A stretch of 64,000 nt of DNA from the sequence record PQ438048.1; one strand, written 5' to 3'. How positions within the stretch are numbered: position 1 is the stretch's first letter; every line of letters begins with the position of its first letter. The DNA is from Escherichia phage MirsaeidiM_Esher1. The position numbers were made by a program, and so were the translations under genes. Shown piece by piece: positions 58,869-61,115 of this stretch. The notes below the pieces were generated by a model. It was not told where the DNA came from. It made no database searches and worked only from the letters and a program-made list of their open reading frames with translations.

Positions 58869-59225
58869 ATGAGTAGTATTGATCAGAACATTTGTTACCA
58901 ACCTCTTACCTGGATTGGTGAGGGCCATTATGCGCAACGTGTTATCGTCTGTGCGGCGAATAAGTATATTTTAAATAATGGTGAAGAGTTAATTATTCCT
59001 TGTGTTCGACATGCAAATCCTGTATTATCTGCACAATTGAATGTATTGAAAGAAGCAGGTGTGCTTGATAAAGTGCATTGTCTTCCAAACAATCAAGGTT
59101 TTATTGATCAATACTACAATTGGTGGAGTCGTGAAGATGCATACATCATTGCAAAACACGCAGACCAGATTGACTACGAACGTAATGGTCATGATCGTGA
59201 CCTATTTAGCGAGGGATTATACTAA
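58869..59225 (+). CDS. hypothetical protein
   Basis: ORF with AGGAGA RBS. Confidence 0.5.
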   Translation: MSSIDQNICYQPLTWIGEGHYAQRVIVCAANKYILNNGEELIIPCVRHANPVLSAQLNVLKEAGVLDKVHCLPNNQGFIDQYYNWWSREDAYIIAKHADQIDYERNGHDRDLFSEGLY

Positions 59226-59776
59226 TGTTTATTACAAGTGATTTGCATTTTATGCACAAACGTATACGAGAGTTTGCTCCTGAATATCGACCGTGGGAAG
59301 ATATGGACCACATGACGGAAGCACTGATCGAAGCATGGAATAAATGCGCTACGAGTCCAGGTGTCAAGATGTGGCATTTGGGTGACTTCTGTTTCGGGAC
59401 TGAAGAAGATACCCGTAAGATTGCTTCCCGCCTCCAAGGGGATATCACTTATTGTGTTGGGAACCATGATTACAGCAAACACCGAGAAGTGCTTGCAGAG
59501 TATGGAGAAGTGGTGTATTATGACGAAGTGAAATATCAGAAGCTGTTCTTCGTCTTAAGCCATTACCCTATGGCCTCCTGGAATAAACAAGGTCGTGGAT
59601 CAATCATGCTACACGGGCATTCCCACGGATCTTTCCCTGATGAAGCTTATGGTAAAATGTTAGATGTGGGTTGGGATGCACACGGAAAAATCTTACATTT
59701 TGATGAGATAATTTCTATGATGAGTAAACGAGATATCGTAACTGTAGACCATCACAAAATAATCAAAGGAGAGTAA
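59225..59776 (+). CDS. metallophosphoesterase (calcineurin-like), putative RNA end-healing 2',3'-phosphatase
   Basis: Signature motifs SDLHF (D-x-H), GDFCFG (GD), GNHD, LHGHSHG in canonical order. Confidence 0.8.
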   Translation: MFITSDLHFMHKRIREFAPEYRPWEDMDHMTEALIEAWNKCATSPGVKMWHLGDFCFGTEEDTRKIASRLQGDITYCVGNHDYSKHREVLAEYGEVVYYDEVKYQKLFFVLSHYPMASWNKQGRGSIMLHGHSHGSFPDEAYGKMLDVGWDAHGKILHFDEIISMMSKRDIVTVDHHKIIKGE

Positions 59777-59777
59777 T

Positions 59778-60710
59778 GTGGCTAAATTTAATTGCGACGA
59801 TTTAGTTGAAAAAGGTTTAGTTCATAAGAAAACATATAAAGAAGGAGAGTATTCTGGTCTATCTGTTCTTAAGTATAAGAACAAAGTTTTCTGGGATAAC
59901 CTATGGAACATTGATTCTCGTCTTCTAGAATGTCGCGGAATCGTTGTTGACGCTGATGACAATGTTGTTATTTGGCCTTTCACTAAGATTTTTAATCGTT
60001 TTGAGAATGGCACAGATCTACCAGCGGATGAATTTGTAGATGTTGTTCGTAAAGTAAATGGTTTTATGGCCTCTGTAGGTGTATATAAAGGTCAACTTAT
60101 CGTATCGACAACAGGAAGCCTTGAATCAGATTTTGCAAGTATTGCAAAGAATCGTATTGTTTCAGAGTGCGATGACATAGAACATTTCATCAAATGGACA
60201 GAGAGTGCAAAAGCAACTTTCCTTTTTGAAATCTGTGATCCTTCTGATCCGCATATTGTCGAAGAAGAACCAGGTGCATACTTAATTGGTGCCAGAATTC
60301 AAAATCCTGACGGGACAAGTTTTATGTTACCTGAAGGTGCTCTTGATGGAATTGCTTCTGTCACCAAATTTAAGCGTCCTGAAGTTCATCCAATGGTTAA
60401 GTTTTCAGATGTTGTTGAAATGTCTAAACATTGTAAACACGAAGGGTTTGTAGTTCGTGAAACAAACTATCCGTTCAACTTACTTTTAAAAATTAAATCA
60501 CCACACTATCTTATTAAGAAGTTTCTTATGCGTGGTGGAGATAAAAAGTGGGATCTGATTTGGGATAATCCAAAAAATGCCAAACAAATTGTTGACGAAG
60601 AATATTACGCTTTGTTAGAATGGATTCGAAATAATTTTACGAAGACTCAATGGGCTGCTTTAAATCAGCAGGAGCGACGTGAAAAAATAGAAAACTTCTT
60701 TGGAGGATAA
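59778..60710 (+). CDS. RNA ligase, T4 Rnl1-like
   Basis: LLECRGIVVD (T4 Rnl1 has ALECRGIMFE), motif I KVNG, motif IV EGFVVRE, motif V LLKIKS (T4 Rnl1 EGYVAV...HFKIKS). Confidence 0.75.
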   Translation: MAKFNCDDLVEKGLVHKKTYKEGEYSGLSVLKYKNKVFWDNLWNIDSRLLECRGIVVDADDNVVIWPFTKIFNRFENGTDLPADEFVDVVRKVNGFMASVGVYKGQLIVSTTGSLESDFASIAKNRIVSECDDIEHFIKWTESAKATFLFEICDPSDPHIVEEEPGAYLIGARIQNPDGTSFMLPEGALDGIASVTKFKRPEVHPMVKFSDVVEMSKHCKHEGFVVRETNYPFNLLLKIKSPHYLIKKFLMRGGDKKWDLIWDNPKNAKQIVDEEYYALLEWIRNNFTKTQWAALNQQERREKIENFFGG

Positions 60711-61115
60711 ATGAAACAACTTATCATTTTACGTGGCGTTTCAGGTGCTGGTAAATCTACGGTAGCAGAAATTATTTCTGAAGGTTATTGGCCTATCTGT
60801 GAGGCAGATCAATATCATTACACAGAAAGTGGTGTTTACGATTGGAAGCCAGAAAATGTAGGTAAAGCACACGCATGGTGTCAGAGTATTGTTCGTGATG
60901 CTATGGCATCTAATCTTAACAAGATTATTGTTTCTAACACTTCAACCACAGAGAAAGAACTTAAACCTTATCTAACTCTTGCTGAAGAGTTTGGTTATCA
61001 AGTTATCTCTTTAGTTGTTGAAAATAGGCACGGTAATGATTCAATTCACGAGGTTCCACAATATATTCGTGATCAGCAAGAGAAACGTCTTCGTGGTTCA
61101 CTTAAACTTCAATAA
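60711..61115 (+). CDS. polynucleotide 5'-kinase (T4 Pnk kinase-domain-like, no HAD phosphatase domain)
   Basis: N-terminus MKQLIILRGVSGAGKSTVA vs T4 Pnkp MKKIILTIGCPGSGKSTWA; IIVSNTSTT vs VIISDTNL. Confidence 0.75.
   Translation: MKQLIILRGVSGAGKSTVAEIISEGYWPICEADQYHYTESGVYDWKPENVGKAHAWCQSIVRDAMASNLNKIIVSNTSTTEKELKPYLTLAEEFGYQVISLVVENRHGNDSIHEVPQYIRDQQEKRLRGSLKLQ

Follow-up and report, generated by a model that had tools for sequence, protein, structure and literature searches.

Three adjacent plus-strand genes at positions 59225-61115 of a 64,000-nucleotide stretch of Escherichia phage MirsaeidiM_Esher1 (record PQ438048.1; the whole stretch is hereafter called the window) raise the question of whether they form a system for the repair of broken RNA, and of what that system would consist. 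The sequence-only reading of this DNA had proposed a cassette of a calcineurin-type phosphoesterase, a ligase resembling RNA ligase 1 (Rnl1) of phage T4, and a kinase resembling T4 polynucleotide kinase (Pnk), dedicated to RNA repair and counter-defence. In T4, Pnkp and Rnl1 repair tRNA-Lys that has been cut by PrrC. The observation itself is confirmed, with family matches far beyond chance, and its interpretation is in essence supported. We conclude that the three genes probably constitute, in a lytic Phapecoctavirus, a heal-and-seal module for RNA with its functions on separate genes, a version of the T4 Pnkp/Rnl1 pathway. The family assignments, the fold of the ligase, and the linkage of the genes across phage lineages, including gene fusions, favor the RNA repair reading, from which we infer the activities and the role in tRNA repair and counter-defence.

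The window belongs to a Phapecoctavirus (a phAPEC8-like myovirus, Stephanstirmvirinae), and its bases 58000-63000 are 97-98% identical to those of Escherichia phages 536P1, nepoznato and many others.

Gene organization

The open reading frame (ORF) calls bore out three adjacent plus-strand genes with tight junctions. The first (59225-59776, ATG start) encodes a calcineurin-like metallophosphoesterase of 183 aa, the second (59778-60710, GTG start) a predicted Rnl1-family ATP-dependent RNA ligase of 310 aa, and the third (60711-61115, ATG start) a stand-alone Pnk-like P-loop protein of 134 aa, a predicted polynucleotide 5'-kinase. The phosphoesterase stop codon and the ligase GTG are a single base apart, with GGAGAG ahead of the GTG. 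The kinase ATG directly abuts the ligase stop codon, and is preceded by GGAGGA. On the upstream side, the phosphoesterase ATG overlaps the stop codon of a Y16D-family gene (TAATG), and a Shine-Dalgarno sequence is present ahead of the start codon at each cassette junction. The cassette sits in a long co-directional array of plus-strand genes, which starts near 56200, just past a divergent tRNA cluster. A promoter consensus scan of 54700-64000 gave 34 matches, compared to 28.8 ± 5 in shuffled sequences, and thus no excess, and a terminator consensus scan of the same region found none convincing at the cassette borders. Because these scans gave nothing usable, we make no claim about operon boundaries beyond the tight junctions.

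The RNA ligase

The 310-aa protein matched the Pfam family RNA_lig_T4_1 (PF09511) over the entire profile (positions 1-227 of 227) with a score of 56.3 bits (cut-off 28.3, E 5e-15), and the PHROG family phrog_562 (1e-69). A phmmer search of the PDB with the single sequence gave no match and a profile was required; a profile of 17 sequences matched T4 Rnl1 (2c5u) at 7.8e-11 over residues 51-250, which span the nucleotidyltransferase domain. The motifs ECRGI, EGFVVRE and LLKIKS, on which the sequence-only reading had based its assignment, are present, and their core residues, in ECRG (R53), EGFVV (E222-G223) and KIKS (K238/K240), are invariant across the 17 homologs. Also invariant are the adenylylation motif K92-x-N94-G95 (K92-V-N-G95), which that reading had not listed, and the nucleotidyltransferase motif F150-E151, so that motifs I, III, IV and V are all present.

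We compared these positions with the residues reported from mutagenesis to be essential in T4 Rnl1 (R54, K75, F77, K99, G102, K119, E159, E227, G228, K240 and K242). The invariant ligase residues R53, K70, F72, K92 and G95 align with T4 R54, K75, F77, K99 and G102, and E151, E222, G223, K238 and K240 with T4 E159, E227, G228, K240 and K242. T4 R54, K75 and F77 lie upstream of motif I, and are essential residues specific to Rnl1.

An AlphaFold model of the ligase (pLDDT 91) contains a nucleotidyltransferase domain and a short helical C-terminal domain of ~65 aa. The best Foldseek matches of the model were the ligase domain of fungal Trl1 (Trl1-LIG) and T4 Rnl1 (E 9e-14 to 4e-12, TM 0.60-0.65), with Trl1-LIG marginally ahead and the scores practically equal. 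These were followed by Rnl3 (1e-10), Rnl2 and Rnl5 (~1e-6), and DNA ligases (5e-5 or weaker). The middle protein is assigned to the Rnl1 family of RNA ligases, and not to the DNA ligases, because the Pfam and profile matches, the residue conservation and the modeled fold agree, with the Rnl1 and Trl1 folds far ahead of any DNA ligase. It is the predicted sealing enzyme of the module, with K92 as the predicted adenylylation site.

The kinase

The 134-aa protein consists of a kinase domain alone, without the fused 3'-phosphatase domain of T4-type Pnkp. It matched Pfam AAA_33 (4e-10) as a bare P-loop domain, and in PHROG it matched phrog_2071 (2.6e-56) and phrog_505, annotated as "polynucleotide kinase" (1.7e-8). 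PADLOC gave weak P-loop matches only. The P-loop G9-V-S-G12-A-G14-K15-S16-T17 and the residues A32-D33 are invariant across 21 homologs, and D33 aligns with the general base D35 of T4 Pnk.

A single-sequence phmmer search of the PDB returned only P-loop noise, and reached no polynucleotide kinase, that of T4 included. With a profile of the 21 sequences, the matches were led by Capnocytophaga Pnkp1 (4xrp, 1e-6), T4 Pnk (1ly1, 1e-4) and the kinase domain of Clostridium thermocellum Pnkp (CthPnkp; 4gp7, 3e-4). Glucokinase (2e-3) and nicotinamide riboside kinase (0.035) ranked lower, by modest margins. The polynucleotide kinases of RNA repair thus outranked sugar, gluconate and nucleoside kinases in this search, which speaks against a nucleotide or nucleoside monophosphate (NMP) kinase. 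The protein had been described as a close match to T4 Pnkp at its N-terminus; the likeness to Pnk holds, but the relationship is a distant one, with BLASTP aligning it to the T4 Pnk kinase domain at 28% identity (115 columns, 22% gaps). Of the phosphate-contacting Arg residues of T4 Pnk (R38 and R126), R38 aligns with the nearly invariant H36; the invariant R106 stands opposite T4 R122, not R126, in the HMMER alignment. These comparisons support the description of the protein as Pnk-like, and it is predicted to heal the 5'-OH end.

The phosphoesterase

The 183-aa protein matched Pfam Metallophos (PF00149) with 25.4 bits (cut-off 21.5, E 2e-5), and PHROG phrog_547 (8.7e-56). The four motifs noted earlier (DxH, GD, GNHD and GHSH) are present, and the residues D6-x-H8, G53-D54, G79-N80-H81, H113 and G131-H132-x-H134 are invariant in seven homologs of 34-47% identity. 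All six metal-binding motifs of the calcineurin-like superfamily are present.

In a profile search of the PDB, the sole solved relative was Aquifex aq_1665 (1xm7, 6.5e-18). At E up to 1, the search reached no Pnkp phosphatase and no lambda phosphatase, and otherwise only a few weakly matching phosphoesterases. By these profile matches, the protein is placed in the uncharacterized aq_1665 subfamily, outside the bacterial Pnkp phosphatase clade. The earlier comparison with bacterial Pnkp is therefore apt for the superfamily and its chemistry, but not for the family or clade. C. thermocellum Pnkp uses its metallophosphoesterase domain to remove 2',3'-cyclic phosphates and 3'-phosphates. We predict that the phage protein is likewise the 3'-end healer, converting a 2',3'-cyclic phosphate or 3'-phosphate to a 3'-OH.

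Linkage of the three genes across phages

GenBank contains 690 phage records with relatives of the ligase. From viral metagenomes in IMG/VR, 80 ligase loci were sampled, and clustering at 70% ligase identity left 34 lineages. In 31 of these, the kinase gene was found within 3 kb of the ligase gene, and in 29 the phosphoesterase gene. Among named genera, homologs of the trio lie within ~2.5 kb in Vequintavirus, Pakpunavirus, Thalassavirus, Otagovirus, Plateaulakevirus and Saclayvirus. At least four gene orders occur among them, one of them divergent. In addition, kinase and ligase are fused in 11 metagenomic ORFs from two lineages, with lengths up to 433 aa, two of them ended by a contig edge. 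The conservation of adjacency in shuffled orders, together with these fusions, argues for the three genes forming one pathway, and is the strongest of the new evidence.

The fusion ORFs, which include L057:2179-3471, L058:5536-6831, L061:4482-5759 (contig and coordinates) and eight more, carry a full kinase at the N-terminus and an Rnl1-family ligase at the C-terminus.

A scan of 185,579 representative cellular genomes found the ligase clade at 3 loci, all in metagenome-assembled genomes or short contigs; the scan used exact peptide patterns, by which distant cellular relatives could be missed. The clade appears to be essentially phage-restricted.

In phage Bas54 (Vequintavirinae), the homologs bas54_0207-0211 tolerate transposon insertions during growth on E. 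coli K-12, according to a transposon data set. The N-terminal domain of T4 rnlA, by contrast, does not tolerate insertions. This behavior suits an accessory, condition-dependent function of the module.

The upstream cREC and Y16D-family genes

The sequence-only reading had confined the unit to three genes. These three stood, but the full extent did not, as a gene further upstream is probably also included. This gene (58501-58857, plus strand) encodes a cREC protein of 118 aa (cyclic-phosphate processing receiver domain, PF20274), which matched its Pfam profile with 50.5 bits (cut-off 27). Its acidic active site, of the receiver type, is intact: D8/D9, D52/D54, T90/S91 and K98 are shared by 10 homologs. 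It is located two ORFs upstream of the phosphoesterase, with the Y16D-family gene lying between them. In Vequintavirus, cREC immediately follows the homologous ligase. Aravind and colleagues have predicted that cREC proteins open 2',3'-cyclic phosphates, and have linked them to RNA ligases (PMC7824862, PMC9503650). We consider that the cREC gene probably belongs to the module in the present phage, and that its product is a probable accessory component of 3'-end healing, with a predicted activity. Across the sample, cREC and sirtuin genes were each found within 3 kb of the ligase in 3 of the 34 lineages.

The intervening gene (58869-59225, plus strand) encodes a 118-aa protein of the T4 Y16D/arn.3 family (PF26092). 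The protein is phage-only, and has no structural relative in the PDB. Membership of this gene in the repair system is uncertain. A search of NCBIfam with the five proteins from cREC to the kinase gave no meaningful match.

Proposed function and its alternatives

The enzymatic activities, the substrate, the division of labor between cREC and the phosphoesterase, and the role in counter-defence that we infer would combine as follows. An RNA, most plausibly a tRNA in its anticodon loop, would be cut by a metal-independent RNase of the host, for which an anticodon nuclease or another HEPN-type defence effector is the most plausible candidate. The binuclear metallophosphoesterase would restore the 3'-OH, possibly after or together with ring opening by cREC. 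The 134-aa kinase would phosphorylate the 5'-OH, with D33 as the general base. Finally, the ligase would be adenylylated on K92, pass the AMP to the 5'-phosphate, and seal the break.

Several points weigh against this proposal. The essential T4 Rnl1 residue K119 faces an invariant Thr in the ligase (T112, in S110-T-T112-G113) in the HMMER alignment, which may reflect either a shift in the alignment or a real difference. The conserved helical region at the C-terminus of the ligase (residues 242-309) comprises ~65 aa, against ~120 aa for the domain of T4 Rnl1 (residues ~255-374) that confers tRNA specificity; the match to T4 Rnl1 ends at about residue 250, and the two C-terminal domains do not align. 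Because this region is about half the size of that in T4 and unaligned, a preference of the ligase for tRNA is not established. The kinase resembles known polynucleotide kinases to a modest degree (E 1e-6 to 1e-4), and the aq_1665 subfamily of the phosphoesterase has no characterized member, 1xm7 being a structural-genomics protein. In the HIDEN-SEQ comparisons that were covered, the Bas54 homologs were not significantly depleted (adjusted p 0.75-1.0), so those comparisons show no conditional requirement. The literature on the module in Phapecoctavirus, Vequintavirinae and Pakpunavirus yielded genome annotations and the one transposon data set, and no biochemical or genetic test.

The presence of cREC, and of Trl1 ligase domains at the top of the fold matches, also accords with an NAD-linked, Trl1-like route, in which cREC opens the cyclic phosphate to a 2'-phosphate and the ligase seals a 2'-PO4/3'-OH end, in the manner of fungal and plant tRNA ligases. 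Removal of the 2'-phosphate would then fall to a Tpt1/KptA-like sirtuin in related phages; at the present locus, the phosphoesterase or a host enzyme would take this part. Vequintavirus and relatives carry this ligase and cREC beside a sirtuin, and such a route has been proposed for the corresponding neighborhood of phages V5 and Mydo (PMC9503650 section 3.7.3). We consider this route rather improbable for the present locus: tblastn with Vequintavirus and Streptomyces-phage sirtuins (E up to 0.01) found no sirtuin in the window, the lineages with sirtuin or cREC are few compared to those with the phosphoesterase, the Foldseek scores of Trl1-LIG and T4 Rnl1 are practically equal, and the sequence gives no reading of a 2'-phosphate requirement. 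It is very unlikely that the three proteins merely share an early-gene region and have unrelated functions, the ligase in tail-fiber attachment (the second role of T4 gp63), the phosphoesterase in degrading signals or nucleotides, for instance the cyclic-nucleotide signals of immunity, and the kinase in nucleotide or nucleoside phosphorylation, tied to NAD or nucleotide metabolism. Such functions would fit the database labels "RNA ligase and tail fiber protein attachment catalyst" and "ATPase", the NAD-salvage-type genes that neighbor the module in ~10 of the 34 lineages, and the weak profile matches of the phosphoesterase to the cNMP phosphodiesterases Rv0805 and Icc (E 0.03-0.1); Iyer et al. 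named the kinase a "nucleotide kinase" (PMC9503650). They fit poorly with adjacency kept in shuffled orders, with the kinase-ligase fusions, and with the rank of polynucleotide kinases above nucleoside kinases in the PDB profile search. Moreover, Bas54 can do without its ligase homolog on K-12, whereas T4 rnlA does not tolerate insertions in its N-terminal domain; this speaks against an essential part of the ligase in tail-fiber attachment or virion assembly.

An ATP-dependent DNA ligase is encoded at 61858-62985, 750 bp downstream of the cassette with three small ORFs in between, and 11 of the 34 lineages have a DNA ligase gene within 3 kb of the module. The kinase and phosphoesterase could in that case clean 5'-OH/3'-phosphate nicks for the DNA ligase, with the RNA ligase a bystander or active on DNA; T4 Pnkp acts on DNA too, and the phosphoesterase weakly matches the ligase-associated PdeM family (E 0.004, 16 bits). 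This reading is highly improbable. The DNA ligase is a recurrent but looser neighbor, its linkage being far below the 31 and 29 of 34 lineages seen for the kinase and phosphoesterase with the RNA ligase. Among the loci examined, fusions join the kinase to RNA ligase and never to DNA ligase, and the PdeM match is far under the 150-bit cut-off.

Within the RNA repair reading itself, a broader version would take the unit to be a five-gene operon of cREC, the arn.3/Y16D gene, the aq_1665-type phosphoesterase, the Rnl1-family ligase and the kinase, with cREC and the Y16D protein both performing RNA 3'-end chemistry. We regard this version as unlikely. If true, it would add two new enzyme activities and a sirtuin-independent clearing of 2',3'-cyclic phosphates, and the target might be recently discovered tRNA-targeting defences and not PrrC.

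Relation to known RNA repair systems

The RNA heal-and-seal module that we favor shares with T4 Pnkp (pseT) and Rnl1 (rnlA/gp63), which counter PrrC, the ligase family with its catalytic and Rnl1-specific residues, the P-loop 5'-kinase family with its general-base Asp, and the logic of healing both ends before sealing. The systems differ in the layout of the healing functions, which are fused in T4, where a HAD-type phosphatase is joined to Pnk, and separate here. As the sequence-only reading had noted, the healing functions are split, and the predicted 3'-phosphatase is of the calcineurin type (a binuclear metallophosphoesterase) and not of the HAD type. In addition, the ligase has 310 aa with a short C-terminal domain, compared to 374 aa in T4, with Thr in place of T4 K119, and the genes are contiguous with cREC attached, whereas pseT and rnlA lie apart in T4.

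The bacterial Pnkp/Hen1 and Pnkp1-Rnl-Hen1 systems (C. thermocellum, Capnocytophaga gingivalis) likewise combine a kinase, a metallophosphoesterase and an ATP-dependent RNA ligase, and the PDB profile search placed Pnkp1 and the CthPnkp kinase domain near the top for the phage kinase. They differ in being single-polypeptide fusions with an Rnl4-type ligase and a Hen1 2'-O-methyltransferase, none of which was seen here, and in their phosphatase clade, to which the phage phosphoesterase has no specific similarity. Fungal and plant Trl1 (LIG-KIN-CPD) shares the Rnl1-family ligase domain and the P-loop polynucleotide kinase, and its domain fusion is echoed by the metagenomic kinase-ligase fusions. 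In contrast to the present module, Trl1 uses a 2H cyclic phosphodiesterase, and needs a 2'-phosphate that is later removed by Tpt1. Here, the metallophosphoesterase, with cREC, would be the 3'-end enzyme, and no Tpt1/KptA or sirtuin is present.

A further precedent is the type 2 sirtuin-centered neighborhood of phage V5, Proteus phage Mydo and relatives, described by Iyer et al. in 2022 (PMC9503650 section 3.7.3), which comprises a T4-like tRNA ligase, cREC, a kinase, MazG and, in some instances, a phosphoesterase of the calcineurin-like type. All five components are present in the window between 58501 and 63956. Identities to the Vequintavirus homologs are 47% for the ligase, 55% for cREC, 43% for the kinase and 36% for the phosphoesterase. 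The present locus differs in that the window has no sirtuin, the genes are co-directional and contiguous, and the arn.3/Y16D gene lies between cREC and the phosphoesterase. A homologous pair of kinase and RNA ligase genes is present in the Pakpunavirus "Adele" (PMC12846349), with 39% (ligase) and 47% (kinase) identity at the JG004 locus. The authors of that study (2025) read the pair as tRNA repair and remarked on the missing 3'-phosphatase domain, leaving the nearby phosphoesterase unconnected. The Pakpunavirus loci differ further in lacking cREC, and in standing beside NAD-salvage-type genes.

The same role in RNA repair has thus been predicted independently for this arrangement (PMC9503650 section 3.7.3; PMC12846349), and GenBank annotations already name a phosphoesterase, a putative RNA ligase ("RNA ligase/RNA repair" in one record) and a putative polynucleotide kinase. 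The arrangement was therefore already predicted computationally, and the present locus is a sirtuin-less, fully contiguous example of it. The discovery is incremental for this reason. New here are the quantified linkage, the kinase-ligase fusions, the family assignment at the level of residues and fold, and the placement of the phosphoesterase in its subfamily. The findings would carry more weight if new RNA-end chemistry were to be found in cREC, the protein of the Y16D family or the aq_1665-type phosphoesterase.

It is now recognized that defences that cleave tRNA are widespread (PrrC/RloC, PARIS, retron effectors, Septu, Cas13 and others). To our knowledge, outside T4, replacement tRNAs are the only well-studied phage answer to them. 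The split-gene repair kit is present in hundreds of sequenced phages, including therapeutic candidates in Phapecoctavirus, Vequintavirus and Pakpunavirus. If it works, it would be a second common phage counter-measure to tRNA cleavage, would give a function to the aq_1665 phosphoesterase subfamily and to cREC, and would allow better prediction of host range on strains with RNA-targeting defences.

Other neighboring genes and annotations

The window contains ten phage tRNA genes (Met x2, Ile, Pro, Gln, Gly, Thr, Asn, Ser and Arg) on the minus strand at 52656-54739, divergent from the cassette and ~3.8 kb upstream of the cREC gene, and a similar cluster occurs near the Vequintavirus module. Adjacency to tRNA genes was considered as a general feature, and dropped as evidence, with a tRNA or tmRNA within 6 kb in 11 of the 34 lineages. 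In metagenomic phage contigs, tRNAs of the suppressor type (anticodons CTA and TTA) and a tmRNA occur a few kb away from the module, at L047:11576-11651, L076:10734-10806, L050:9183-9255 and L058:12177-12579.

A MazG-like nucleotide pyrophosphohydrolase is encoded at 63231-63956 on the plus strand (Pfam PRA-PH 2.7e-6, phrog_671 8e-28). Its homolog lies downstream of the ligase in Vequintavirus (L003), and a MazG gene was found within 3 kb of the ligase in 1 of the 34 lineages; the tie of this gene to the module here is weak.

Sirtuin and NAD-salvage genes were sought in the window, and none were found. Elsewhere, NAD-salvage-type genes are near the module in 9-10 of the 34 lineages. Genes resembling ribose-phosphate pyrophosphokinase and nicotinamide phosphoribosyltransferase lie a few kb from it at L004:7328-10163, L005:9070-12100 and L006:7906-11847, and such NAD-reconstitution-type neighbors occur in Pakpunavirus, Thalassavirus, Otagovirus and others. 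These combinations may be counter-defence gene islands.

In a 93-kb metagenomic phage contig (L010:6001-7267), the Y16D gene stands beside a different metallophosphoesterase of 258 aa and ThyX, without an RNA ligase, and in a 154-kb contig (L063) it lies 470 nt upstream of a ligase module with 43% identity, in another lineage. These two contexts hint at a link between the Y16D family and phosphoesterases. A cREC homolog at L022:3433-4119 is in a frame of 229 codons (stop to stop), with an N-terminal extension of ~110 residues.

Several existing annotations appear to be in error. The cREC gene is labeled "putative RNA ligase and tail attachment protein" in phage nepoznato, a likely mis-annotation. 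The arn.3/Y16D-family gene is labeled "anti-restriction nuclease" in several phages, also a likely mis-annotation, apparently a name carried over from the neighboring T4 gene arn. In Pseudomonas phage phiPsa347 (L006), the phosphoesterase homolog (5202-5771) is annotated as a MutT/nudix phosphohydrolase, and the kinase homolog (7368-7838) spans two short annotated coding sequences (7313-7525 and 7596-7841), suggestive of a frameshift or a mis-call.

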